Shown here piece by piece: positions 7,440 through 57,366 of a stretch of 64,000 nucleotides of DNA; within the stretch, counting starts at the first letter, position 1; each line of letters begins with the position of its first letter. The stretch covers positions 140,386-204,385 of the forward strand of contig JAGYIO010000003.1 in NCBI GenBank assembly GCA_018402585.1, in the 5' to 3' direction. The position numbers and the translations under genes were made by a program. Source of the stretch: Chthoniobacterales bacterium. GTDB lineage: Bacteria; Verrucomicrobiota; Verrucomicrobiia; Chthoniobacterales; JACTMZ01. Below the pieces are notes generated by a model. That model was not told the origin of the DNA. It did no database searches and worked only from the letters and a program-made list of their open reading frames with translations.

Positions 7440-7460
7440 TAGTCACTTCGGACTATAGCG
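7440..7460. promoter_or_regulatory. Conserved 21-nt box TAGTCACTTCGGACTATAGCG (TAGTC-N6-GACTA palindrome), copy 1
   Basis: 19 of 21 nt match 10132-10152. The box lies in the divergent region between GH3 (-) and the beta-helix gene (+), 98 nt before the 7558 ATG. Confidence 0.45.
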
Positions 7461-7557
7461 GCGGTGGATAAACCGGCGTAGTTTCCTCTCGTTCTTTGCG
7501 TCGCGTCCACGCAGCAACAAACAAATCCAAACAACCTCCACAACACCCAGTCCTCCC

Positions 7558-9849
7558 ATGAAGCTCAAAACCAAAACCCCCAAGTTACGTCGCGCCCGCC
7601 TCGGAACTTCCCTCGTCACCGCGGCCCTCGCAGCGATCAGCCTTTCGGCCGCCAGTGCCCAAGACAATTCCTGGACCGGCGGCACGAGCACGGATTGGAA
7701 CACCCCGGGAAATTGGAGTCTCGGAAATGTACCAAGCGGGCAGAACGCCATTGTGGACAACGCGTCGGGAAACATCGCAACCATCTCCGCGGATATTGCC
7801 GCCACGCCCAATGATATCGTCGTGCGCGGGGGAGGCCGCCTCGATCATCTTGCCGGAACCGCCGGCACAGGCGGAGGCAGTTGGATGTTTGTCGGCCAGA
7901 ACGGCACGGCGGGCACCTACAATTTGGCGGACACCGCCACGGCCGCTGCCGGCCTGACCGGTTTTGCCCAGGGAACCGGTTCACTCAACGCCACGGGGAA
8001 TCTAAACGTAGGTGCTGCTGGTGACAATCGGACCGGAACCGTGCGGGTCAACACGGCGGGAACGCTTGCCGTCTCCGGCGAATTCTTCATCGGTGACTCG
8101 CTCAACAGCACGGGCACTTTCAGCCTCGAAAACGGCAGCATGACGGTGAACAACAAGATCTATGTCGGCAACAACCGGGGCACCGGGACGCTGACCATGT
8201 CCGGCGGCACGCTGACCAAGACCGGCGGCGACCAAACTTTTGTCGGCCGCGACAGCGGCACCGGGACCCTCACCCAGAGTGGCGGGACCATCACGCTGAA
8301 CCATGATTTCTACGTGGGACAAGGCGGCGGTGGCAACGGCACTCTCAATCTTAGCGGCAACTCGGTGCTCAACACCGGGCGTGATTTTGTCATCGGCCGC
8401 GAGAGTGGCACGGGCACGCTCAACATGACCGGCGGCACGATCACCAAGACCGGGGATGAGAAGATGATCGTCGGCCACAACAATGGCACAGGCACCGTGG
8501 TGCAGAGCGGCGGAACGATCAACGTGAATCAAAACCAGTTGTATATCGGCAACGAAAATGCCGGGGCTCAGGGAACCTATACCCTCAGCGGGACCGGAGC
8601 GCTCAACGTGGCGGACGAATTGGTCGTCGGCCGCGAGAGCGGCACAGGTATCTTGAACGTCAACGGCGGCACGATCACCACCTCGGGCAACGGCAACATG
8701 TATATCGGGCGCCGTAACGGCACAGGCACCCTCAACCAGACGGACGGGGTAATCAGCGTGATTTACGAATTCGGCGTGGGTACGCGCGATGACAACAAGA
8801 TTGGCACCGGCACCTACAATCTGAGTGGAGGCACCTTGTCGGCGGGTCGTAACATCTTCATCGGCAAAGAACTCGGATCGTCCGGAACGATGGTCATGAC
8901 CGGCGGGGCGATGAGCACGAGCGACAAGTTGCAGATCGGGCACAACCAAGCGACGGGCGTTCTCACCCAGAGCGGCGGCACGGTGAACGTGCAAAACGAA
9001 GTCTTCATCGGCAATGAAAACAATGCCTCATCGGTGGGAACCTACACCCTGAGCGGGACCGGCGTCCTCAACGTGGGCAACGAGGTCATTGTCGGCCGCG
9101 ACAACGGCACGGGAACCTTCAACCTCGACGGAGGCACGGTCAACGCCACCAAGATTTCCGGCGGCAACGGCAGCGCGACGGTGAACTTCAACGGCGGCGT
9201 GCTCAAAGCCAAACGGGACGAGGCCAACCTGATCGAAAACCTGGACACCGCCAACGTCGAAAACGGCGGGATCAAGATCGACAGCAACGGGTTTGCTGTT
9301 GCCACCAGCCAGGCTCTGACCGGCACGGGCGGCTTGGAGAAGCTGGGCGCGGGCAGCCTGACCCTCAACGCAGCCAGCACTTACACCGGGCCGACGCTGG
9401 TCAGTGCCGGCACCTTGACCTTGGCCCTCAACAGCAGCATCACCAGCGCGGTCACTGTGGCCGACGGCGCCGCCCTCGGCGGAGCGGGCGCCATTGCCGG
9501 CGACCTCTCCTTCAACTCCGGCGCCAAGTTTGCCTTTAGTCTCACCCAGACACTTCTCGCCAACGGCGCCACGGTGAGCTTTGCCGACTTCGGCATTGAC
9601 GATCTTGTCGGATTGTCCAGTGCGACCACGGTCGGTCTTTACAACCTCATCGGCGGCACCGCTATCATCAACACGAACGGACTGAGTAATCTGGGTGCCG
9701 CCAACGCCGCCGATCTCGGCGATGGAAAGTCCGCCTACTTCACCGAAGGTAGTTTGCAAGTCAACGTCGTTCCGGAACCCAGCACCTACGCTTTACTCGT
9801 CCTCGCCGGTCTGGGGCTGGCCGGCCACGTCATCCGCCGGCGGCGCTAA
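7558..9849 (+). CDS. Autotransporter-associated beta-strand-repeat surface protein with a C-terminal PEP-CTERM anchor
   Basis: It has a signal peptide and the NSWTGGTSTDWNTPGNWS motif. It carries about 20 repeats of the G-T-G-T-L-x-x-S-G-G-T-I type and GGLEKLGAGSLTLNAASTYTGPTLVSAGTLTL. The C-terminus is VPEPSTYALLVLAGLGLAGHVIRRRR. Confidence 0.9.
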   Translation: MKLKTKTPKLRRARLGTSLVTAALAAISLSAASAQDNSWTGGTSTDWNTPGNWSLGNVPSGQNAIVDNASGNIATISADIAATPNDIVVRGGGRLDHLAGTAGTGGGSWMFVGQNGTAGTYNLADTATAAAGLTGFAQGTGSLNATGNLNVGAAGDNRTGTVRVNTAGTLAVSGEFFIGDSLNSTGTFSLENGSMTVNNKIYVGNNRGTGTLTMSGGTLTKTGGDQTFVGRDSGTGTLTQSGGTITLNHDFYVGQGGGGNGTLNLSGNSVLNTGRDFVIGRESGTGTLNMTGGTITKTGDEKMIVGHNNGTGTVVQSGGTINVNQNQLYIGNENAGAQGTYTLSGTGALNVADELVVGRESGTGILNVNGGTITTSGNGNMYIGRRNGTGTLNQTDGVISVIYEFGVGTRDDNKIGTGTYNLSGGTLSAGRNIFIGKELGSSGTMVMTGGAMSTSDKLQIGHNQATGVLTQSGGTVNVQNEVFIGNENNASSVGTYTLSGTGVLNVGNEVIVGRDNGTGTFNLDGGTVNATKISGGNGSATVNFNGGVLKAKRDEANLIENLDTANVENGGIKIDSNGFAVATSQALTGTGGLEKLGAGSLTLNAASTYTGPTLVSAGTLTLALNSSITSAVTVADGAALGGAGAIAGDLSFNSGAKFAFSLTQTLLANGATVSFADFGIDDLVGLSSATTVGLYNLIGGTAIINTNGLSNLGAANAADLGDGKSAYFTEGSLQVNVVPEPSTYALLVLAGLGLAGHVIRRRR

Positions 9850-11684: not shown

Positions 11685-11726
11685 ACCACCGAATTCCAAC
11701 CAACCCTCATCCAACCCCCGAAACCC

Positions 11727-14700
11727 ATGAAATCCACCCCCACCCCCCCTATCACCGGAAACTTCCTTCGGGCTACACCCGTTGTCGCCGCCCTTCTCCT
11801 CGGCTTGAGCGCCCCGCTCGGTCACGCCGTCGACAACTTTTGGAGCGGAGCCGTGAGCTCGGATTGGAATGACGGGGCCAACTGGTCGGAAGGCGGGGTG
11901 CCCGATACTCTATTTGACGACAACGCCGTTGTGGCCACAACCACCCCCAACATCGCAACGATCACCGCGGATATTTCCGCGACCCCCAATGACATCATCG
12001 TGAATGGGGGCGGTCGCATCGACCATCTGGCCGGCGTGGCCGGAACCTTCGGGGGTGCCTGGATGAAGGTGGAAGACGGCGTCTACAACCTGGCCGACAC
12101 GTCGATCCCAGAAGTTGGTATCACCGGCTACGCACAAGGCACGGGTTCGCTCGACGCCACGGGAAATCTCCTTGTGGCCGCCTTCGGCGACAATCGGGAG
12201 GGCACGATCAACGTCAACACCGACGGGACCCTCACCGTTTCCAGCGAGCTGTTTGTCGGCGACTCCACGGGCAGTCAAGGCGCCCTCAACCTCGAAGCGG
12301 GCACCATGACGTTGAACAACACGAGCTACATCGGCAACAACCGGGGCACCGGCACGGTAACCATGACCGGCGGCACGATAATCAAAACGGGTGGGGGGCA
12401 GCTTCTCGTCGGGCAAAACAATGGTATTGGCCGCGTGTTGCACAGCGGCGGCACCATAAGCGCGAACAACGAAGCGTACATCGGCAATGCCAATGCCGGT
12501 TCGGGAAGCTACACGCTGAACGGGACCGGATCGCTTAGCATTTCCAACGAGCTCGTCGTGGGGCGCGAACTCGGCACGGGCGTTCTGAACGTCGACGGCG
12601 GTACGATTACGACCGAGGGCAATGGCAACATGTATGTCGGCCGCCGCAACGGCGTGGGAACACTCAACCAAACGGCCGGCACGCTCAACGTGAACCGCGA
12701 GTTCGGCGTGGGAACACGCGACGGCGACCAGGGCGGCATCGGTGCCTACAATCTGAGCGGAGGCGCGCTGGCGGCGACCAACAACATCTTTGTCGGCAAG
12801 GACGAATCCTCCTCGGTCAACGCCACCTCCTTGGTTCGTGGCGTGGCCTACGTCATCACGACGCCGGGCGATACAATTTGGACCGCATTCGGCGCAGCCG
12901 ATAACAACGTGGGAACGGTCTTCACCGCCTCGGCCAGCGGAACCGCGGACAGCGGCACCGGTGTCGCGGTCAAGGTCACCGATGTGTCCGGCAAGTCGTC
13001 CGGCACCATGACGATGACCGGCGGAACCGTGACGGGCAGCGACAAGCTGATCATCGGGGAGAATGGCGCGACAGGCTTCCTTGCGCAAAGCGCCGGCACC
13101 ATGAATGTGCAGAACGAAATCTATGTTGGCAACGGTCTTCCGCCCGCCCAAGGAACAAGGATTCTTTCCAATGCTAATGACGGACAACTCGAGAAGCGTT
13201 CCGAGTGGTCACCTGAAACCGTCATCATTCAAAATATCGACAACTGGAATGTGAGCATCGGCGAATGGTATGGATCCGGCCTGACGACCGCCGTCATCCC
13301 TTTCCAGTTGCCCGACTTCGGCGCGGTGGCTGATCCGTTCACCAGCGCCACCTTCGGGGTGAATCTTTACAACAAAGGAGATGCCACGGTCACCGACCTC
13401 GACCTCTACGCAGTGAGGGTCAGCCCTGCCCCCCAGATTGCCACAACCGACTGGTACAACGGTTCCGCCCCCGACCCGAACGCCACGCTGATCCAAGCGA
13501 GCTTCCTCACCCCCGCCAGCACGACGACGAGCGCAGGTCCCGAGAGTGGGCCCAACAACCTGACGGATGACGCGGGAAGCGCGGCACTCCTCGCCTACCT
13601 CAATGCCGCCTACGACAGCGGGAACGGGGCCGGACAGTTCGTTTTTCTCCGGGTGAGCTACGCCTCGGACACCTTCCCCTCAGGTTGGGATGCTTACAAT
13701 TTTACAACCCGCAACGCCGCTCTCGAGGGCGATGCTCCGGTGATCAGCTTTACTTCTTCCGTCGCAGCGATCCCGCCCGACGCCACCTACACGGTCAGCG
13801 GTTCGGCGGTGGTCAACGTGGGCAACGAAATCATCGTGGGCCGCGAAAACGGCACCGGCACCCTCAATCTTGACGGCGGCACGGTCAACGCGACCAAGAT
13901 CTCGGGTGGCACCGGCAACGCCACGCTGAACTTCAACGGTGGCGTCCTCACCGCGAAACGGGACGAGAGCAACCTGATCGAAAACTTGGATGTGGCCAAT
14001 CTGGCGGGTGGCGGACTCAAAATCGACAGCAACGGGTTCAACGTGACCACCAGCCAGTTCTTCACGGGTACAGGCGGCTTGGAGAAATCGGGTGCAGGCC
14101 AGCTCACCTTGCGCGCACCCAGCACCTACGCAGGCACTACAACGGTGACGGCCGGCGTTCTCCGGGTCGAAAAAACCGGACTTAATGCCATTGTCGACGC
14201 CACCGCCGACACTTTGGTCGCCGAGTTCGCGGCCCCGACGGCTCCCGGGGCTTACCGCATCTTGCCCGGGCCTCTGGCCGGGTCCCAGACCTTCACCGCC
14301 ACCGGTTTGGGCTCGCTCCAGCAGGCGACTTTCGACGCACAGACCAGCACCGTGACGGTCACGGGAGAGCCGGACGGCGACCCTTACGTGGCCTGGATCG
14401 AGAGCTTCACTCCGAATCCCCTGCTCCCGGATGACGCCTCCAAATTACCCACCGCCGACCCGGATGGCGACGGCATCGCCAATCTGATGGAATACGTGCT
14501 GGCCGGCGGCAACCCGGTCGTGCCGTCTCTCTCCATTCTCCCGACCGTGGCCAGCGTGGGTGACGATCTGGTGCTGAGCTACACCCGCAATGACGAATCG
14601 GAAGCGGACACCACCCAAGTGGGCCAGTGGACCACAGACCTGACCGTCTGGAATGACGTCGTGCCTGTGGTGGTCAACGAAAACGGGGCTTTGGCGGATG

Positions 14701-14777
14701 ATATGACAGTCACCGTGCCCAAGAGCAATGCGGTCAACGGAAAACTGTTTCTCCGCTTGAAGGTGACCATGCCGTAA
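11727..14777 (+). CDS. Autotransporter-associated beta-strand-repeat surface protein, paralog of 7558..9849, with insert domains and a non-PEP-CTERM C-terminal module
   Basis: The N-terminal ~430 aa and the [30 protein letters not shown] region are collinear with the 7558 protein. Extra segments lie at ~12796-13000 and ~13159-13785. The C-terminus is [21 protein letters not shown]...[12 protein letters not shown]. Confidence 0.9.
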
Positions 14778-31131: not shown

Positions 31132-31302
31132 GGCAACAACCGTTTCAGATCAGACCTGATGGATCGCGATGTCCCGCTCGCGATTTTTCCACTTTACTCC
31201 CGCGGGGGACAGCATGATCCACCTTCAGCAACTAGTTTTCCCCAACTTCCAAACGCAGGAACTTTTGCCGCTCCCCAGGCAAGACCGGCGCAGTGGCGCG
31301 GC
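31132..31302. repeat. ~171-bp direct repeat, copy B (the 3' end of the S8 protease gene plus downstream sequence)
   Basis: See 29752-29923. This copy includes the last ~22 codons and the stop codon (31232-31234) of the 1872-aa gene. Confidence 0.7.
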
Positions 31303-34300
31303 GTATTTCATAGTCACCGTGATCGCTGACCAACTCATCGGTCACACCGTCGGCCGACCAATTGCTCGTGTTGAGATCATTCTTCCAGACTACACGTCCG
31401 CTCACGCCGTTGAGTGATTTGCTGCGACGATAATCCAGATGGAAGCTCGTTGCGGTCGGCGCACCAATGACCATGGCTCCCGCCGCATTGCCGCCCGGTT
31501 GCAGGCCAAAGAAATATTCCGCCAAATTCACCAGACCGTTGCCGTCCGGATCCGCACCCGGAGATGCGTCAGACAAGCCGGCCGACCAATCCCCGAAGCT
31601 GACTCCCTGCACGGTCAACGTCCCGGGGAAATAGAAAATCGAGTAATTCGCCGGATTGAACGCCCCGCCGGCGGCAGCTGATGGCGTGAGCGTGTAGACA
31701 CCCGCCGCATCATTGGCCGCCGTGCCGCCATTGGCGGCCAGAGTGACCGAACCAATCGTCTCCCCGTCGGCCAAACCCGAGGCGCTGAAGGCGGTCTGCC
31801 CGGGCCCAAGCGGTAATGACTCGCCGAACGGTTTACTTTGATCAAGAGCGGTGATGTTCAGCCCGCGCGGCCGCACTTCGCTTTCGGGCATGGCCATGAC
31901 CGCCGGAGCGGCTCCCGCCGTGGTACACGTGATGTCACCCGAGTAAAACCCGACTGGCATGCCTGCCGCCAAACGGATGAAAACCACGGTCGGCGCCAGT
32001 TCACCCGCCCCACCGAGTGCCGCAGTCGGCGCATAGCCCGTCGTGCCATCCTCGCTGAGCGACAACTCAAAGCCGGTGGGTGGGGTGATGGTGATGCTTT
32101 CTTGCAAATCACTGCCGGCCACGAGGAACGAGGTCTGCGTCAGCGAGGGAAGCCCATAGGTGGCAATCTGGACGGAGGGCTGGCCGGAAAGCGCAATTTC
32201 CGGAGCCGGTCCCGCGGCGGCATCGGTAATGAGCAGATTGTCGATGTTGGCGCGGCGGTTACTAGAACCGGAGCTACCCGCTCTGATACGCACGCGCGCT
32301 GGGCCAGAAATATTCACAGCGGCGGAGAAAGTGGCTACCTCGGCACCGGCCGTGAATCGTCCGGCTTCGGTCCATACCCCACCTGCATTGGTGCTGTATT
32401 CCACGATCCACGGGATCTGCGTGTCCGACCCATAGCGCCGATGCTGAAAACTGATAGTCCCGATACCTCCTAGTTTGTCGTTCAGCATGACCATCTCGGA
32501 GGTGCCATAGCCTCGCAGGCGGGCGGATCTCAGGCCGTTTTTGAATTCGGTCTGCTCCGTGCCGATCAGCACCTCCGTCATGCTCCACGTCAACCCGTTG
32601 AGCATATCGGTTCCAGCGGCATAACCAGCTTTGCTCCCATCCTCAAAATCGACGAGGTAGCTCGTCCCCCCGGATGCGTTAATCGTCAAATTCAGCACCG
32701 CTTGTCCACTGCCAGCGGCATTGGAAGCCGTGAGAGTGACCGCAAAGCCTCCCGTTTGCGCGGGCACGCCGGAGATCAATCCGGTCGCGGGCACAATGTT
32801 CAATCCCGATGGCAGCCCGGTGGCGGCAAAAGTGTTGGGGTTGTTGCTGGCCGTGATCTGGTAATTGAAGGACTGACCCACCACAGCAACTGCCGTCGAT
32901 GCGCTGTCAATGACGGGAGTTGCCGCCGAGCTGGCGGAATTGCGCGGCGCGGGCGGCCCGGCCGAAAAATCCGCACCGTTGTCTCCCGTGTCCATGGCTC
33001 CGCCTCCGGCACGGAAGATAGCAGTGGTCGCCGAAGGCGACGGAGCCGCCGCCGATCCTTCGTAAGCATTAGCCGCCCCGAAACCAACAAAGTCCTGCAG
33101 CCCGCTTTGTCCGACCGGCGAGGAACCCATGAAGAGCGCCGTGGTGTTGCGCAGGGCGACCTTGCCCTGCGTGGCACTCATCCTAATGGCACCAGTTAGG
33201 TCGGGTGTGGGCAACGCGGCACCCGTGGATCCGCCCGAGAGCCTGACGAGGAAATACCCACCGGGCGCGATCGTGCCGACCAGATCCACCTTCGTGCTCC
33301 AACTGGTTCCCGAAGCCGAGGAGTATTGCAGGCTCCAGCCCGCGAGATTGACGGCTGATCCGCTCCGGTTGTGCAGTTCGACATAGTCCGCATTGTAAAC
33401 CGCCCCGTTGTTGCCACCCGCGCCATAGATCTGGCTGATTAAAACCGGTGACTCCACGATCGTGAAACTCGTTGAACTGGTCGCCACACCGAGTGGAGTG
33501 ACGACACTTAGCGGACCGGAAGTGGTGCCCGCGGGCGCGACCGCGGTGATTTGCGTGGCGGAGTCCAAAGTGTAAGCAGTGGCATTCACACCGTTGAATC
33601 GCACGGCGGACACATTGGCGAAGTTGACTCCAGTAATGGTCACGCTCTCGCCCGCCGCCCCACTGGCGGGGCTGAACGCTGCAATCGATGGCGCACCATT
33701 CCCGACGAGCACGGCTACGGTCGACGGCACCGTGGTCGTCGAAAGATTGCCGTTGTCCCACGCCCGCGCGGCCAGCGCATAGGTCCCGGCCGCGGGCGGT
33801 GTCCACGTTGCGGTATAAGGCGAGACGCTGCCGGCGGCCACAATCTGTCCGTCGACGAGAAATTCCACGCGGTCGATGACCCGCGGCGATCCGTCCTCGA
33901 GTTCGCCAGAGGCGGTGGCGGTGGCGGACAAAGTCAGCGGCTGCCCGGAGGCGACCACGGTGCCGCCTGTTGGCGTATTGAGCGTGACCACAGGCGGTTG
34001 GCCGCCGTCGCCACAGCAACTCGACTGCACCGTGGTTATATCCAGCCGCCACCCGCCGGAGATCGAGCCAGCGTCTTGGGCGGCACGATCCACGACATAG
34101 AGCGCCCAGTTTCCGTTGGCTGAACCACCGTTGAAGGGGGAAAGAGCCGCGCCGTAGGGCACTGCAGGGGCCGGAGACGGCAAACTGCTGGACACACCTG
34201 TGGGCCGGAAAATGCCCGAAGTGATCGACGAACCGACAGACGCTGTCGCTTCGTCATCGAAGGTGATGGTGGCATTGACCGCATCCGTTCCTCCGCCAAC

Positions 34301-36850
34301 CCTGCCCAGCAAACCGACGCGCGCACCGTCTGGTCCGACAAGCAGGACATCCAAGTCACCCGGATAGGTGTGCGACAGACCGACGAGAGTCACCGCGACT
34401 TTGCTGACCACCCCGGACCGGCCTGCGACATTGATGATCGACGGATAAGGCGTCGACGCACCGCTGTCCGGTATGGTCATGCTCGCCGGATTGGACGCTT
34501 GGGCGGATTCCGTGGCCGCGATGCCGAGCACGAACTCGAAAGCCACCGTGCCGAGACTGGTCGCGCCGTCCTGCAGAGCCAGCACAGCGCTGACCGTTGC
34601 CCCGCACTCACCTTCGGTAACGAATTCGAAACTCCGCGCCACCGCCGCACCACCCGCCGGCAGCACGCCGTAGGATTGCGGACCGCTCGTCAACGCGGTT
34701 ACGCCGTTGCCATCGAGCAAGGTGGCGGTCAGATTGGTCGTGCTAGCCGTGCCGTTGTTCTTCAAGGCCAGGGCCATGGTGACAATCTCACCCGGATCCG
34801 GCACTCCATTGCCCGCACCGCAACTCTCGGCCACCAACGTGCCACCGTCCGCAACGACCACCGGCACCGAGGCGGTCGCCCCGCCGGTGACCACTAAGGA
34901 GTAGGCCTGCGCCGAGGTGGTCAACGAGCCATCCAAAGATACGGTCACCGTGTAGGAACCGGCCTGCACCGGCGACGCCAGCAGCACCTGCTCGGTGTTA
35001 TCAACGTTGTTTTTGCCGCGCGTGGCCGCCAGCGCCATAGAGGCGTCCGACCACGTGCCGACAAAGGGCATAACAAAAGGTTGGTAAACCGTCGTGCCGT
35101 CCGGCGCAGTGATCTTGAGATCGAGATTGTGGACCAGATTCGGCACGCGGCTGTTGTCGGCCTGCGCCGTGCCGGCGGGATCGGTCCAACTCAGCGTGGC
35201 ACGAATCGGACTGACCCCATCCCACTGGAAGACGTGGGATCGCGAGCGCACGGACGAAGTGAGGGTGTTTTCGATCAGCTTCGGGGTGCCGGGAAATTGC
35301 TTCTGCGACAGGATAACATCGGCCGCTGCCTTCACGTTGATCAGGCCCCAGCCGAATTTGTAATCCGGTCCCGGCGTGCCGAGGTCGTCGGCCGTGTGGA
35401 TGAGCAAGGCTTTGAGTAGACTGGCTGGCAGACGCCGGCCGCCGAACTCGCGCGCGTAAAGCTGGGACAACAGGGCGGCCGAGCCGGCAGCGGATGGCGT
35501 GGACATGCTCGTGCCGCCGTAGGACGAGTAAGCCGAGTCGCTCGTGTCGATCGGCGAATAGACGGTCACGCCATTGGCCACCACATCGGGCTTGATCCGG
35601 CCGTCGTCGCACGGGCCCCAACTCGAGAAGGTCGACATCGTGCCGGCCGCCGGTGAGCGCGCACCGCCGCTGACCGCATCGTTGACCGCGCCGACTGTCA
35701 TAATATTTTTGGCCAAGCCGTTGAAGGTGATCGACTGGTAGCCGTTCTTGGCCGTCAACTCATCCTGCTCGTTGCCCGCCGCCCAGAAGATCAGGAAATA
35801 AGGCATACTCACGGCGAGCGTGTCCGTCGTGCGCGACTCCGCATTGTAGCGGCCCATGTCCGAGATCGTCGCGTTGTAGCCGTAGGAGTGGTTGGAAATA
35901 GGAATTTTCGACGAGTCACCGGTAGCGGTAGCCGCTCCGGAGGAGGTCATTTCCGCGTAGTCGCTGTTCCAATCCCACGAATCGATCGCCACGTTCGGCG
36001 CCATGCCCTTGGCCAGATTGGTGAAGCCGAGTGCACCGACCGTGCCGGCCACGTGGGTGGCGTGATCGTCGAGGGCTACGTTGTTGCGCTTGATGACCCG
36101 CGTGGTGTTGAACTCGCGGTGGGTGTTGCGCACCGCGCCGGCATCCCACACCCCGACCTTCACTCCCGTGCCGTCGAGATTGTAGGGCGCCGGATAAAGC
36201 AGATTGGCCGCGCTGGAGATGGCCGCGTTGCGATTCTGGGTCACCCGATAAAGCGGCTCGGTGCCCCGGATGTCGTGCAAGATAGCCACCCGTTGGCCCG
36301 GACCCTCGACCCGCACCGGAATATCAAGTTCTTGCGCCTTGGCCAACACGGCCTCGTAGCGCACTTCCTCGGCCTCCGCCATTTCCCCCACGGCCAGCGC
36401 CCGCTGGGCCGGATCCGCCAAATCCTTGCCAGCCAAAATTTCCGCCGGCGTGCGGTAAACCGTGAATCCGTCCGGCCAAGCCGGCCCACGCACCGGATCC
36501 GGCACCACCCCCTCGCCCGCGGAGGCCGCCGCACTGACCACGCGGGCTTGCTTGGGCTCCGATCGCTGGACAGGCGAAGCTGGCGGAGAGGTCTGCGCCG
36601 GGGCATTGGTTGCCGCGGGCATCGCTGGGGCCGTGCTGCTCTGGTCAACGGCGGCGGCCATCGCGGGAGACGATGATACCATATCGGCAAGGGCCAAGTC
36701 CGGAGCCGACGGCGCAGAAAGCGGAGCGTCATTGCCGACTTCATCGACCAGGGGGACCGGCAGAAAACCCGGGCCAAAGAAAACTCCTACCCCGAGCAAC
36801 GCGGCCCCCAGAATGATGGTGGCCAGAAACAGGCGTGGACGGGTGTTCAT
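31232..36850 (-). CDS. Giant secreted subtilisin-like (S8) serine protease with P-domain, IPT/TIG, lamin-tail (LTD), Ig-like and C-terminal DPDG...FLRLEV modules
   Basis: The catalytic triad contexts are VGVWDAG, DDHATHVAGTV and GGTSMSTPSAAGSAALL. SHTYPGDLDVLLVGPDG marks a proprotein-convertase P-domain. LISQIYGAGGNNGAVYNADYVELHN marks an LTD. PVIDSAS...FNYQITASNNP...GLPSGL is a putative Ig domain. The tail is ADPDGNGLVNLAEYFFG. Confidence 0.9.
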   Translation of the reverse strand: MNTRPRLFLATIILGAALLGVGVFFGPGFLPVPLVDEVGNDAPLSAPSAPDLALADMVSSSPAMAAAVDQSSTAPAMPAATNAPAQTSPPASPVQRSEPKQARVVSAAASAGEGVVPDPVRGPAWPDGFTVYRTPAEILAGKDLADPAQRALAVGEMAEAEEVRYEAVLAKAQELDIPVRVEGPGQRVAILHDIRGTEPLYRVTQNRNAAISSAANLLYPAPYNLDGTGVKVGVWDAGAVRNTHREFNTTRVIKRNNVALDDHATHVAGTVGALGFTNLAKGMAPNVAIDSWDWNSDYAEMTSSGAATATGDSSKIPISNHSYGYNATISDMGRYNAESRTTDTLAVSMPYFLIFWAAGNEQDELTAKNGYQSITFNGLAKNIMTVGAVNDAVSGGARSPAAGTMSTFSSWGPCDDGRIKPDVVANGVTVYSPIDTSDSAYSSYGGTSMSTPSAAGSAALLSQLYAREFGGRRLPASLLKALLIHTADDLGTPGPDYKFGWGLINVKAAADVILSQKQFPGTPKLIENTLTSSVRSRSHVFQWDGVSPIRATLSWTDPAGTAQADNSRVPNLVHNLDLKITAPDGTTVYQPFVMPFVGTWSDASMALAATRGKNNVDNTEQVLLASPVQAGSYTVTVSLDGSLTTSAQAYSLVVTGGATASVPVVVADGGTLVAESCGAGNGVPDPGEIVTMALALKNNGTASTTNLTATLLDGNGVTALTSGPQSYGVLPAGGAAVARSFEFVTEGECGATVSAVLALQDGATSLGTVAFEFVLGIAATESAQASNPASMTIPDSGASTPYPSIINVAGRSGVVSKVAVTLVGLSHTYPGDLDVLLVGPDGARVGLLGRVGGGTDAVNATITFDDEATASVGSSITSGIFRPTGVSSSLPSPAPAVPYGAALSPFNGGSANGNWALYVVDRAAQDAGSISGGWRLDITTVQSSCCGDGGQPPVVTLNTPTGGTVVASGQPLTLSATATASGELEDGSPRVIDRVEFLVDGQIVAAGSVSPYTATWTPPAAGTYALAARAWDNGNLSTTTVPSTVAVLVGNGAPSIAAFSPASGAAGESVTITGVNFANVSAVRFNGVNATAYTLDSATQITAVAPAGTTSGPLSVVTPLGVATSSTSFTIVESPVLISQIYGAGGNNGAVYNADYVELHNRSGSAVNLAGWSLQYSSASGTSWSTKVDLVGTIAPGGYFLVRLSGGSTGAALPTPDLTGAIRMSATQGKVALRNTTALFMGSSPVGQSGLQDFVGFGAANAYEGSAAAPSPSATTAIFRAGGGAMDTGDNGADFSAGPPAPRNSASSAATPVIDSASTAVAVVGQSFNYQITASNNPNTFAATGLPSGLNIVPATGLISGVPAQTGGFAVTLTASNAAGSGQAVLNLTINASGGTSYLVDFEDGSKAGYAAGTDMLNGLTWSMTEVLIGTEQTEFKNGLRSARLRGYGTSEMVMLNDKLGGIGTISFQHRRYGSDTQIPWIVEYSTNAGGVWTEAGRFTAGAEVATFSAAVNISGPARVRIRAGSSGSSNRRANIDNLLITDAAAGPAPEIALSGQPSVQIATYGLPSLTQTSFLVAGSDLQESITITPPTGFELSLSEDGTTGYAPTAALGGAGELAPTVVFIRLAAGMPVGFYSGDITCTTAGAAPAVMAMPESEVRPRGLNITALDQSKPFGESLPLGPGQTAFSASGLADGETIGSVTLAANGGTAANDAAGVYTLTPSAAAGGAFNPANYSIFYFPGTLTVQGVSFGDWSAGLSDASPGADPDGNGLVNLAEYFFGLQPGGNAAGAMVIGAPTATSFHLDYRRSKSLNGVSGRVVWKNDLNTSNWSADGVTDELVSDHGDYEIRRATAPVLPGERQKFLRLEVGEN

Positions 36851-53806: not shown

Positions 53807-54598
53807 ATGAGCGACATCCTTCAGGAATTGCTCGAAGCCCGCCGCGCCGGCCACCCCTGCGCCCTCGCCACCGTCGCCGCCACCACCGGCTCCGTCCCGC
53901 GCCACCCCGGCGCGAAAATGATCGTCTACGCGGACGGCTCTATCGCCGGCACCATCGGCGGTGGAAAATTCGAGTCCCTCGTCATCGCCGAAGCCCTCGA
54001 CTGCCTCGGCAAAAACGAAACCACCTTGAAAACCTGGCCCCTCCGCGAGGACCAACCCGATTCCTTCGGCGCGATCTGCGGCGGCGAAGTCACCGTGCTC
54101 ATCGAGCCCCAAGTCCCCGCCCACACCATGCTCCTCATTGGTGGCGGACACTGCGCGCAATCCATCGCCAAGCTTGCCGCTGAATGTGGTTTCCACGTCA
54201 CCGTGGTCGAAGACCGTGCCGACATCCTCGCGCAGTGCACCGCCGCCCATCAGCGATTCACCGACTCCGCCCCGACCTACATCGCCTCGCGCGATTGGAA
54301 CAAAAACGAAGCCATCGTCATCGTCAGCCGCCACTACGACATCGACCGCGCCGCCCTCGCCGCCGCCCTGGCCCAAGGCGGCATGGGCTACCTCGGCATG
54401 ATCGGCAGCCGCCGCAAAGTCCTGCAAGTTTACGACCAGATGAAAGCCGACGGCTTCACCAGCGAGCAACTCGCCGCGGTCTACGCCCCCCTCGGCCTCG
54501 ACATCGGCGCCGACTCCCCCGCCGAAATCGCGGTGAGCATCGTGGCCGAAATCCTCATGGTCCTGCGCGAAAAATCCGGCCGCCCGCTGAAACTCTGA
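53807..54598 (+). CDS. xdhC: XdhC/CoxI family molybdoenzyme maturation (accessory) protein
   Basis: ALATVAATTGSVPRHPGAKMIVYADGSIAGTIGGG is the N-terminal XdhC_CoxI part, and LLIGGGHCAQSIAKLAAECGFHVTVVEDR is the Rossmann part. The start is moved to ATG 53807 (MSDILQELL). Confidence 0.85.
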   Translation: MSDILQELLEARRAGHPCALATVAATTGSVPRHPGAKMIVYADGSIAGTIGGGKFESLVIAEALDCLGKNETTLKTWPLREDQPDSFGAICGGEVTVLIEPQVPAHTMLLIGGGHCAQSIAKLAAECGFHVTVVEDRADILAQCTAAHQRFTDSAPTYIASRDWNKNEAIVIVSRHYDIDRAALAAALAQGGMGYLGMIGSRRKVLQVYDQMKADGFTSEQLAAVYAPLGLDIGADSPAEIAVSIVAEILMVLREKSGRPLKL

Positions 54599-54683
54599 CA
54601 GGACAAAGTAGGGCGCGGCGTCCCCGACGCGCCGGGCCCGCGCTCCGGCGGGTCCAGAAGCCCCGTCCCACCTTTCCCGGCAT

Positions 54684-54712
54684 TTGCCAACGCCGGGACA
54701 CCACGCTAATAT
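54684..54712 (+). promoter_or_regulatory. Near-consensus sigma-70-type promoter TTGCCA-N17-TAATAT
   Basis: The -35 element is at 54684-54689 and the -10 element at 54707-54712, with a 17-nt spacer. The -10 ends 4 and 7 nt before the tandem ATGs at 54717 and 54720. This implies a leaderless or near-leaderless mRNA. Confidence 0.4.
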
Positions 54713-54716
54713 CCTT

Positions 54717-54860
54717 ATGATGAGACTGGCTTTTATCCTCCTCGGCCTTCTGACGCTTGCCATCTCTCCCGCCCAAGCCCAATGCAAGGACTGCGGCTGC
54801 AAAGAAAAATGCTCGCCCAAGTGCACCTGCCAGCACGATGAGAAGCCGCAACCCCGATGA
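54717..54860 (+). CDS. Secreted 47-aa Cys-rich (metallothionein-like) mini-protein, absent from the ORF track
   Basis: Hand translation gives MMRLAFILLGLLTLAISPAQA|QCKDCGCKEKCSPKCTCQHDEKPQPR*. It has a Sec-type signal peptide with an AQA cleavage motif. The ~26-aa mature part has 6 Cys arranged C-x2-C-x-C-x3-C-x3-C-x-C. Third codon positions are GC-rich. The TGA stop overlaps the next ATG as ATGA. Confidence 0.55.
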   Translation: MMRLAFILLGLLTLAISPAQAQCKDCGCKEKCSPKCTCQHDEKPQPR

Positions 54861-55087
54861 ACTCCCTCGACCCGCGCACCAAACGCTTCCGCGCGGCCGA
54901 CAAATCCCTCCAGCAGGCCAAGGCCTCCCTCCAGGGTGCGCAACTCGCCCTGGCCGACCTGCCCCGCTCCAACCTCTCGCCGGTCACCGCCGCCCTCGAC
55001 TCGATCGACCACGCCCTTTCGCACATTGCGGCTGCCGGCGCGCAGATTGACGAAGCCCGCTTGGACGACAGCGAGCAGTTGGCTTGA
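54857..55087 (+). CDS. Hypothetical 76-aa helical protein, translationally coupled to the Cys-rich peptide gene
   Basis: MNSLDPRTKRFRAADKSLQQAKASLQGAQLALADL... has strongly GC-biased third positions and no signal peptide. No family was recognised. Confidence 0.5.
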   Translation: MNSLDPRTKRFRAADKSLQQAKASLQGAQLALADLPRSNLSPVTAALDSIDHALSHIAAAGAQIDEARLDDSEQLA

Positions 55088-55144
55088 CCCAGACCGGCGT
55101 TGCCTTTTGCCGGCGGCCGGAGAAAATGCAGGTTTCCCGACGGC

Positions 55145-56266
55145 ATGCTTTTCCTCACTCCGCGTTACCGCAAAGAAGCCAAGGTCGTCCTGCGCGCCGC
55201 GCGTAAACTCCTGCGCTACCGCCGCGACATCCTTCCCGACAAGCAGATCGTCGGACTCCGCGAAGCGAGCACCCGCCTCGAGGTGGCCCTCCGTAAAAAC
55301 AACCGCGAGGACATCATCATGGCCACGGAGAAACTCCACGGCCTCTTCGACCAAGCCGCCCCCGCACCGCCTCTCGCCGGGCTCCGCGAAAACACGGAGG
55401 TCATCCTCGTCGCTCTGGTCATCGCCCTCGGCGTGCGCGCCTACTTCCTTCAGCCTTTCAAAATCCCCACCGGCTCGATGCAGCCTACGCTCTACGGCGT
55501 GACCGGCACCCAGACCGTCGAGCCCCTGCCCTCGTGGCCGGTCCGTGCGGCCGAATTCGTGCTGCGCGGACGCACCTACTTCGATGTCACGGCTGATAAT
55601 GATGATTCCGTCATCGGCCTCCGCGAGGTCACCCGCTTCCACTTCTTCACCTCAACCGAAATCATCACCCGCACCCGCACCTACGACGTGCCCGCGCCGC
55701 TCAACGTGGTCCGCACCGATTTTAAAATCTACCCCGGCCGCCCGCTCCGCGCCGGACAACCCATCGTCCGCGGTTATGCCGAGAGCGGCGATCAACTCTT
55801 TGTCGACAAGGTCTCCTACAACTTCGTCCGGCCGAAACCGGGCGATGTCTTCGTCTTCCGCACCACCGGAATCCGCCGGATCGAAGCAGGCATCGCCCCC
55901 GGCATGGGCTCGCAATATTACATCAAACGTCTCGCCGCCGTCGGCGGGCAAACCTTGCAAATCCGGCCACCCGACCTGCTCGTGAACGGTACCGTCTCTT
56001 CGCTCCCCGCCTTCCGGCGGGTCATGTCCAACCAAGACGGCTATGCCGGGTATTCCAACACCAGCGCAGGCGGAGGCACCTTTCCCATCCTCGGCTCACC
56101 CGAGGCGGAATACACTGTGCCGCGCAGGTCCTATTTCGCCCTGGGCGACAACAGCTATCACAGCAGCGACAGCCGCTACTTCGGTCCGATTCCCGAACGA
56201 AACGTGGTCGGACGCGCTCTGGTCGTTTACTGGCCGTTCGTCGGGCGCTGGGGACTGATCAACTGA
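55145..56266 (+). CDS. lepB: Signal peptidase I
   Basis: PTGSMQPTL carries the catalytic Ser, and GDQLFVDKVSY, YIKRLAAVGGQTL and GDNSYHSSDSRYFGPIPERNVVGRA are also present. ATG 55145 is preferred over the TTG at 55100. Confidence 0.9.
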   Translation: MLFLTPRYRKEAKVVLRAARKLLRYRRDILPDKQIVGLREASTRLEVALRKNNREDIIMATEKLHGLFDQAAPAPPLAGLRENTEVILVALVIALGVRAYFLQPFKIPTGSMQPTLYGVTGTQTVEPLPSWPVRAAEFVLRGRTYFDVTADNDDSVIGLREVTRFHFFTSTEIITRTRTYDVPAPLNVVRTDFKIYPGRPLRAGQPIVRGYAESGDQLFVDKVSYNFVRPKPGDVFVFRTTGIRRIEAGIAPGMGSQYYIKRLAAVGGQTLQIRPPDLLVNGTVSSLPAFRRVMSNQDGYAGYSNTSAGGGTFPILGSPEAEYTVPRRSYFALGDNSYHSSDSRYFGPIPERNVVGRALVVYWPFVGRWGLIN

Positions 56267-57075: not shown

Positions 57076-57366
57076 ATGAAATCCGCCTACGAACTTGCCA
57101 TGGAACGGCTCGCCGCCAAGGAGCCGGTCGTGCAGCTCAGCGCCGACCAAAAACAACGCATCTCGGCCATCGAGGCGAAGTGCAAAGCGGACATCGCGGC
57201 GAAGGAACTTCTCCTGCAAAGCGAATTGGCCAAGACCCTCGCGACCGGGGCCAGAGACGAAGCGGCAAAAATCCAAGGCCAGTTGACCGACGAGATCCGG
57301 CGTTTCGAGGAGAAGCGCGAGCGCGCCAAGGACGCGGTGCGGGGCGAAACTTCATCGGAGAGATGA
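57076..57366 (+). CDS. Hypothetical 96-aa coiled-coil protein
   Basis: MKSAYELAMERLAAKEPVVQLSADQKQRISAIEAKCKADIAAKELL... has charged heptad-like composition. ATGA overlap with the deaminase gene. Confidence 0.6.
   Translation: MKSAYELAMERLAAKEPVVQLSADQKQRISAIEAKCKADIAAKELLLQSELAKTLATGARDEAAKIQGQLTDEIRRFEEKRERAKDAVRGETSSER

Follow-up and report, generated by a model that had tools for sequence, protein, structure and literature searches.

The locus

The window, by which we mean the whole 64-kb stretch of DNA that was analysed, contains two very short genes between an XdhC-family gene and the gene for signal peptidase I (lepB). The first encodes a cysteine-rich peptide with a predicted signal peptide (henceforth the Cys peptide), the second a protein of 76 residues (p76). 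The features are as follows:

53807..54598, forward strand: XdhC-family gene (xdhC); upstream context, outside the unit
54684..54689, forward strand: -35 hexamer TTGCCA (TTGCCA or TTGnnn in register at most genome and metagenome loci)
54707..54712, forward strand: -10 hexamer TAATAT; from its end it is 7 nt to the ATG at 54720 and 4 nt to that at 54717
54720..54860, forward strand: Cys-peptide gene, 46 codons plus stop; the alternative ATG at 54717 would give 47 aa
54720..54779, forward strand: signal peptide MRLAFILLGLLTLAISPAQA, with a predicted signal peptidase I cut after AQA
54780..54857, forward strand: mature 26-aa peptide QCKDCGCKEKCSPKCTCQHDEKPQPR, with the array C-x2-C-x-C-x3-C-x3-C-x-C
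54857..54860, forward strand: ATGA stop-start overlap of 4 nt, a candidate translational coupling junction found at all peptide-bearing loci checked
54857..55087, forward strand: p76, a conserved 76-aa cytoplasmic helical-hairpin protein (from homologues and AlphaFold2)
55145..56266, forward strand: signal peptidase I (lepB), matching Pfam S26 (E = 4e-33) and TIGR02227; context only

The original prediction placed a 47-codon ORF at 54717-54860. That ORF is present in the window and translates as MMRLAFILLGLLTLAISPAQA followed by QCKDCGCKEKCSPKCTCQHDEKPQPR, but its start requires correction: in homologues the start lies 21 codons ahead of the first cysteine, which matches the second ATG of the window (54720) and favours a product of 46 aa.

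The Cys peptide is encoded by a gene under selection

Spurious ORFs are plentiful in high-GC genomes and the peptide ORF has been skipped by gene callers on three contigs, both of which would suit the view that it is a chance open frame, located in a GC-rich intergenic region or in the 5′ UTR of lepB. The comparative data refute this view. The peptide frame has a pN/pS of 0.32 in a set of 23 loci, as against 0.95 and 1.31 for the other two frames. When the codons of 21 loci are aligned without gaps, codon positions 1, 2 and 3 of the mature core have entropies of 0.51, 0.39 and 0.96, respectively. Purifying selection is specific to the peptide frame, in keeping with the earlier claim of a real gene. 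The pattern C-x2-C-x-C-x3-C-x3-C-x-C occurs once in the six frames of the 64-kb window and not at all in 100 shuffles; its absence from shuffled sequence, together with its conservation in relatives, excludes a chance origin of the cysteine array. Conservation in relatives was the point on which the original prediction had staked itself, and it is extensive: about 60 relatives of the peptide and more than 100 homologues of p76 were found. The promoter and the overlap with p76, described below, are conserved as well. No Rfam family matches the locus, and the spacer between p76 and lepB folds no better than shuffled sequence, on which grounds an RNA element was rejected as an explanation. We consider a chance frame so improbable that it can be set aside; the interval 54720-54860 is very probably a genuine protein-coding gene.

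The N-terminus of the peptide has the basic n-region, hydrophobic h-region and small residues at -3 and -1 that characterize substrates of Sec and signal peptidase I. Position 2 is Lys or Arg in most members of the family, the sequence of the hydrophobic core varies freely among about 60 members with its hydrophobicity kept, and Ala is found at -1 in 61 of 62 members, with Ala or Val at -3 in 57 of the 62. The -1/-3 rules are satisfied across the family, in line with the Sec-type signal peptide that had been proposed, and we are highly confident that these features define a signal for Sec-dependent export and cleavage by signal peptidase I. A bacterial lipoprotein was also considered. The lipobox [LVI][ASTVI][GAS]C is absent; the residue ahead of Cys1 is Gln in 50 of 62 members and the residue at -3 relative to the Cys is not aliphatic. 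The motif does not fit and the lipoprotein reading was rejected.

A conserved promoter, probably placed for leaderless transcription

Upstream regions were compared after anchoring on the start codon of the peptide gene. The near-consensus promoter claimed for the window, TTGCCA-N17-TAATAT, is found at 54684-54712 and is the sole promoter-like match in 54300-55400 (0.1 expected from shuffles). Its geometry is shared among loci: a TTGCCA-like hexamer, a spacer of 16-18 nt (19 in one clade), TAnnnT, and then 5-8 nt to the start codon. This arrangement is present in 20 of 23 loci in a first set and in 16 of 17 in a second (about 36/40), and it is with this conserved distance from -10 element to start that the description of the transcript as leaderless or nearly so finds its support. 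A transcription start ~7 nt past the -10 element would coincide with the A of the ATG or lie beside it. From the sequence alone we regard it as very likely that the geometry is that of a leaderless promoter; because TAnnnT ends 5-8 nt before the start codon, the peptide mRNA is probably leaderless. Transcription from such a sigma-70-type promoter would begin with the ATG itself or no more than one or two bases from it.

There is no SD-like motif ahead of the peptide gene. This was dropped as evidence of leaderless transcription, SD motifs being scarce throughout the genome: of 39 large genes in the window, only 16 show an SD-like sequence close to one of the first four candidate starts. A scarcity of SD motifs is already known for some Verrucomicrobia (PMC10783764).

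The peptide gene is joined to p76 by a stop-start overlap

More than 100 homologues of p76 were found, 56-100% identical and apparently of the same order; 25 alignment columns do not vary, and these cluster in the basic N-terminus MNSLDPRAKRFRAADKSLQQAR. The protein is predicted by AlphaFold2 to form a hairpin of two helices (pLDDT 87.7; helices 6-33 and 42-75) and has no signal peptide, which agrees with its earlier description as helical and non-secreted. A Foldseek search of the PDB returned only generic helical hairpins (best E = 0.68), and comparison with the N-terminal extension of LepB showed the two to be unrelated.

Using p76, 25 genome loci were retrieved from Chthoniobacterales MAGs; in 20 of these the peptide gene lies directly upstream of p76. 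A reciprocal test was based on 17 metagenome loci retrieved with the peptide motif, plus one further locus (L029): in 18 of 18 the next gene downstream is p76, and the two overlap as GTGA. In the most divergent lineage of the peptide (P0147, loci L026-L028) the order is holA-like gene, peptide, p76, again with the overlap. The ATGA that the original prediction noted in the window is thus one instance of a general rule: a 4-nt overlap of peptide stop and p76 start, as ATGA or GTGA, is found in 42 of 42 peptide-bearing loci (the window, 20 genome loci, L026-L028 and L029-L046). In the loci examined the peptide gene never occurs apart from p76.

The reverse is not the case, since p76 stands without the peptide in 5 of the 25 genome loci. 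On a tree of p76 the peptide-less loci fall among peptide-bearing lineages in no fewer than three distinct groups, which implies at least three independent losses of the peptide. Since p76 exists without the peptide, and is better conserved than the peptide, a dedicated role beside it, as its immunity protein or chaperone for instance, is improbable. The constant pairing could be a product of vertical descent at one fixed site, with no functional tie between the two genes.

The start codon of p76 varies with the presence of the peptide. Within the genome set, with the window counted in, 17 of the 21 loci that have the peptide use GTG, as do L026 and every one of the 18 metagenome loci; the five genome loci that lack the peptide all use ATG. 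Such a difference is expected if ribosomes that terminate on the peptide ORF go on to translate p76. Given this pattern of start codons and the invariant overlap, coupling between the two genes appears very probable: ribosomes ending the peptide ORF would re-initiate on p76, and the peptide ORF would double as its translational entry point.

Taken further, the same observations might mean that the ORF is chiefly a leaderless 'launch-pad' that loads ribosomes onto p76 (and lepB), the peptide itself being secondary or unimportant. The overlap is universal among the loci checked, and p76 has a weak GTG start where the ORF is present but ATG in all five loci where it is not. Two individual loci point the same way: L010 has lost the Cys motif to a ~40-nt deletion, yet its -10 element and ATGAAA start survive, as does a degenerate, overlapping ORF of 30 codons; and in L023 another gene lies upstream, whose stop overlaps the p76 start as ATGA. 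A device for loading ribosomes would not, however, preserve a signal peptide, an A-x-A cleavage site, an invariant CKDCGCKxKC and a pN/pS of 0.32; moreover, regulatory or arrest motifs would be looked for at the C-terminus, and that is the part of the family sequence that varies most. We consider it quite unlikely that the peptide is dispensable in this sense.

Whatever the function of the peptide, the locus provides a clean natural example of a small gene, predicted to be leaderless and apparently coupled in translation to the gene downstream. It also shows switching of a start codon between GTG and ATG in step with the presence of the peptide, and is an example of a lineage-restricted small gene fixed at one genomic site.

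Neighbouring genes vary

In the window the signal peptidase I gene follows p76, as originally stated, and probably shares a transcript with the peptide gene and p76; the arrangement is, however, not conserved, about half of the loci being without it. Downstream lepB was found in 10 of 25 genome loci, in the window, and in L026 and L028, where dnaK comes after lepB (L027 ends inside the gene after p76). Loci without lepB carry genes for a DeoC-type aldolase and a 6-phosphogluconate-dehydrogenase-like (6PGD-like) protein after p76. Upstream, xdhC is intact in 9 of 25 genome loci and elsewhere deleted or replaced. Because synteny varies, lepB and xdhC were rejected as functional partners: they are lineage-specific neighbours only.

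Secretion monitors such as SecM, MifM and VemP consist of a small ORF with an export signal upstream of a gene for secretion machinery. The window resembles these in having an export-signal small ORF upstream of lepB. It differs in that the Cys peptide has no conserved C-terminal arrest motif, the conserved part being the mature Cys array; in that p76 intervenes; in that the junction is a simple stop-start overlap; and in the absence of downstream lepB from about half of the loci.

The original prediction saw no modifying enzyme nearby, and the wider survey agrees. Genes for radical SAM, MNIO/DUF692 and DUF2063 proteins, or for any other maturase, are absent within about 2-4 kb at more than 40 loci, and neither these nor metal-homeostasis genes occur among the 30 large window ORFs scanned, which include pyrimidine/purine catabolism, glycoside hydrolases, MutS, DapB and DapF. 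Nor is there a metal-homeostasis gene in the conserved neighbourhood, in flanks with identified genes.

These results bear on the possibility that the peptide is a RiPP precursor, similar to bufferins or to SCIFF peptides, whose cysteines are modified, ahead of Sec export or in the course of it, by the product of a gene located elsewhere in the genome. Bufferins, among them BufA1/DUF2282 and BUF_6/12Cys, are Sec-exported RiPPs that chelate excess periplasmic copper, with six conserved Cys in one subfamily; an adjacent MNIO (DUF692) enzyme and its DUF2063 partner turn Cys into 5-thiooxazoles, and the cores, of 61-68 aa, are predicted to fold (PMC11626156). Some bufferin-type precursor genes are located apart from MNIO genes (PMC12452194), so that a distant maturase has precedent. 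The Cys peptide, too, is a small protein combining a predicted Sec signal peptide with conserved Cys. It nonetheless differs from bufferins in its far shorter core (24-28 aa), in having no linked MNIO or DUF2063 gene, in the lack of sequence similarity and in being joined by an overlap to p76. DUF2282 and the NCBIfam RiPP-precursor models gave no match, and a HMMER profile search found only family members of 43-79 aa. With 46 aa and six Cys the peptide also has what we take to be a superficial resemblance to the SCIFF format, but its N-terminus is a hydrophobic signal peptide and not a hydrophilic leader; a test for SCIFF/ranthipeptides (TIGR03973-type) gave no NCBIfam match, and no radical SAM gene was present in the flanks examined. 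A modified precursor of either kind seems to us improbable.

A family confined to one order

Searching with the single peptide sequence turned up six homologues already called as genes, 44-46 aa long; 47 protein clusters matched a profile made from 23 sequences. An exhaustive HMMER scan of 1.84 billion representative proteins returned only seven peptide clusters at 50% identity, and found no distant or multi-domain relatives beyond this same 43-79-aa family. Miscalled starts aside, the members of both sets are 43-52 aa in length; the exception in the scan is one 79-aa fusion product (P0108). On the sequences so recovered, the Cys-peptide family is confined to Chthoniobacterales (Verrucomicrobiota). 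In the metagenomes from which these loci came, lake metagenomes among them, carriers are abundant.

Searches of Pfam and NCBIfam with the peptide and p76 matched no family, a PDB sequence search with the peptide profile gave a chance signal-peptide match only, and the motif string CKDCGC is without occurrence in the papers searched, where nothing specific was found on periplasmic or exported metallothioneins or on cysteine-rich small proteins in Chthoniobacterales. The earlier statement that this is not a described family holds: the Cys peptide represents an uncharacterised small-protein family. The kinds of element involved are already known – small exported Cys-rich peptides, metallothionein-like ligands, and leaderless operons coupled by stop-start overlaps. 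What is new is the combination of an unmodified 26-residue, Sec-exported, metallothionein-like peptide with an unfailing overlap to one conserved gene.

Possible roles: metal-thiolate ligand or disulfide-bonded mini-protein

Across the family the mature peptides are 24-28 aa in length, with a median net charge of +2. The original prediction had six Cys in 17 residues; the six Cys and their array stand, but the span is 16 residues. In about 60 relatives the array takes the form C-K-D-C-G-C-K-x-K-C-x3-C-x-C, the Cys together with K23, D24, G26, K28 and K30 being invariant or nearly so. Among 59 distinct mature peptides 55 have six Cys at strictly conserved spacing, and the overall composition is 22.9% Cys, 20.3% Lys, 0.1% aromatic residues and 1.2% L/I/V/M. 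Four independent variants with five Cys were found. C1 is replaced by G in one and by R in another, C2 by R in a third and C5 by Y in the fourth; the C5 variant occurs on 14 contigs, which come from four sources. AlphaFold2 gives no fold for the Cys part (pLDDT 51-63), a low confidence that could merely reflect a shallow alignment. Two cofactor motifs were rejected on inspection: neither the c-type haem motif (CxxCH) nor the ferredoxin-type motif (CxxCxxCxxxCP) matches.

The composition, rich in Cys and Lys with hardly any aromatics, agrees with the claim that the peptide is metallothionein-like. The predicted peptide shows the operational marks of a metallothionein: low molecular weight, high Cys content, C-x-C and C-x-x-C motifs and a scarcity of aromatics. 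With SmtA/BmtA, MymT and the small fungal Cu-MTs (that of Neurospora crassa has 25 aa) it shares tiny size, 23% Cys, the C-x-C and C-x-x-C motifs, Lys beside Cys, a virtual absence of aromatic and aliphatic residues and the lack of a predicted fold without metal. It differs from them in being predicted to be exported by Sec and in having no detectable homology to any MT family: no metallothionein Pfam model matched the precursor (E ≤ 1) or any of five mature peptides (E ≤ 10).

We tentatively favour the view that the mature peptide is a periplasmic metal-thiolate buffer. Several features point this way: the Cys/Lys-rich composition, with its C-x-C and C-x-x-C motifs and its juxtaposition of Lys and Cys; the nearly invariant C-K-D-C-G-C-K, which is like a C-x-x-C-G metal knuckle; the lack of an AlphaFold2 structure for the Cys part; and the 5-Cys variants, which a thiolate cluster would tolerate better than would a knot of three disulfides. 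The first half of the array, C-x-x-C-G, presumably resembles the turns of rubredoxin and zinc knuckles. There is also the precedent of the bufferins, as Sec-exported Cys peptides that buffer periplasmic copper (PMC11626156). Once exported and cleaved, the peptide would bind soft metals in the periplasm through its thiolates, in the manner of a metallothionein: the six thiolates could hold a cluster of the Cu(I)4S6 or M(II)2S6 type, and it would buffer or sequester Cu, Zn or Cd without enzymatic modification.

Against a metal role stand the lack of linked metal genes and of sequence similarity to metallothioneins. The periplasm is, moreover, oxidising, and six cysteines there would by default form three disulfides, which counts against a metal-thiolate ligand, as does the fact that known bacterial metallothioneins (SmtA, MymT) are cytosolic (PMC7558416). 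A thiolate protein that does reach the periplasm is Csp1, which is Cys-rich and binds Cu(I) through thiolates, but it is exported by Tat as a pre-folded four-helix bundle tetramer with 13 Cu(I) per monomer (PMC7558416), whereas the Cys peptide has 26 residues and a Sec-type signal.

Oxidation in the periplasm could instead yield a compact mini-protein with three disulfides and no metal, serving as a signal, inhibitor, toxin or envelope-associated factor. The strict spacing of six Cys in 55 of the 59 mature peptides would suit such a product, as would Sec export, which delivers the Cys to an oxidising compartment, and an even number of Cys with small hydrophilic loops. Peptides like the heat-stable enterotoxin STa are made in this way, by Sec export into an oxidising compartment; STa has a Sec signal peptide, about 20 mature residues and six Cys, and the size and Cys density of STa and conotoxins are comparable to those of the Cys peptide. 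STa also has a pro-region, a Cys framework with CC pairs and hydrophobic receptor-binding residues. The framework of the Cys peptide is a different one, and it has neither hydrophobic nor aromatic residues from which to build a binding surface. The residues between the Cys of the first half (K, D, G, K, K), which in toxins are usually variable, are nearly invariant here; four independent 5-Cys variants persist; no Pfam toxin family matches and AlphaFold2 predicts no confident knot; and no outer-membrane export system is linked. A disulfide-bonded product is in our judgement somewhat less likely than a metal-thiolate buffer.

The conclusions at the level of the gene are strong, those on metal binding tentative. 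Should the metal-thiolate reading be correct, a gene product of just 26 residues, left unmodified, would be enough for bacteria to buffer periplasmic soft metals, a simpler route than that of the bufferins, with their modifying enzymes, or of Csp1, with its Tat export of a folded bundle. We would go further only with some doubt, and propose as a speculative possibility that this is the first natural family of unmodified, Sec-exported, metallothionein-type peptides in bacteria: a 26-residue periplasmic buffer for Cu, Zn or Cd that arose in place as the leaderless upstream ORF of a conserved housekeeping gene, for which it would also be the translational entry point.

Annotation of the locus

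The gene had been described as unlisted. This is true of three public contigs with identical p76, on which the peptide ORF is present yet uncalled, but in some MAG records relatives are called as 'hypothetical protein'. The locus exposes a systematic annotation error, in that either the peptide is skipped or p76 is lengthened by 16-25 codons through the wrong frame. Many p76 entries in the databases are accordingly 92-101 aa in length, the callers having extended them upstream via the wrong frame of the peptide gene. In the window these 'long' forms of p76 are ruled out by an in-frame TGA at 54839-54841, which stems from the use of GAT, rather than the synonymous GAC, as an Asp codon in the peptide frame.

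Public gene calls and the Cys-peptide gene

In public gene calls the conserved 76-aa helical-hairpin protein, p76, is often given a length of 92-101 aa (for example in the database homologues P0007, P0011, P0028, P0082 and P0104). In these instances the caller has extended p76 upstream into the Cys-peptide gene, which it reads in the +1 frame (the equivalent of window positions 54782-54856); in the window itself the same extension is blocked by a TGA at 54839-54841. The overlong calls are a systematic mis-annotation that conceals the Cys-peptide gene.

Altered and missing Cys-peptide genes in relatives

Among the Chthoniobacterales loci retrieved via p76, one (L010:3815-3975) holds a degenerate remnant of the Cys-peptide gene. 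It retains the ATGAAA start as well as the -10 element, but the Cys motif is gone through a deletion of ∼40 nt, and what is left is a 30-codon ORF that still ends in the ATGA overlap with p76. A second altered form is P0108, a fusion product of 79 aa present in both NCBI and JGI, which begins with the signal peptide, runs through most of the Cys motif and continues in-frame into the second (C-terminal) half of p76. Either a deletion arose naturally or the sequence is a chimera of the assembly. At a further locus (L006:3855-3866) the conserved start-codon position is occupied by ATA, and the sole ATG available to the Cys-peptide gene overlaps the -10 element; the start may have been mutated, or an unusual start may be in use.

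In the peptide-less lineage represented by L023 (1700-1730), the ATGA overlap of p76 is with the stop codon of another gene upstream, whose end carries an ABC-ATPase-like stretch and which may be uvrA. Because the overlap is here formed with another gene, it is possible that p76 depends generally on translational coupling.

Flanking genes

The upstream side was compared in L001, L002, L003, L005, L007, L008 and L025. In L001 (3578-3733) xdhC, which precedes the Cys-peptide gene, is cut down to its two ends (residues 1-20 and 228-263 only). Several close relatives lack xdhC entirely, and there an aminotransferase gene abuts the Cys-peptide promoter. In the window the XdhC-family gene follows a long nucleobase-catabolism cluster, and no xanthine-dehydrogenase subunits were seen adjoining it.

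Features upstream of xdhC in the window
7459-9849 and 11685-14777, + strand: two large proteins, each with a PATR autotransporter-type repeat
31232-36850, - strand: giant ORF of 1872 aa
36943-53736: long nucleobase-catabolism cluster, with genes for malate synthase, a cupin, OHCU decarboxylase and two M20 amidohydrolases among its members, along with PreT/PreA-like dihydropyrimidine dehydrogenase, aldehyde dehydrogenase, a dihydropyrimidinase-like amidohydrolase, a cytosine/uracil permease and a class III aminotransferase

On the downstream side, LepB (signal peptidase I) has a basic N-terminal extension of ∼85 residues (window 55145-55420), apparently cytoplasmic, ahead of the transmembrane segment and catalytic Ser; in relatives all 373 aa align, at 77-91% identity. 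Further along, an ORF of 96 aa (57076-57366) that belongs to no Pfam family is conserved next to the HAD hydrolase gene, at 60-90% identity, in those related loci that keep lepB.
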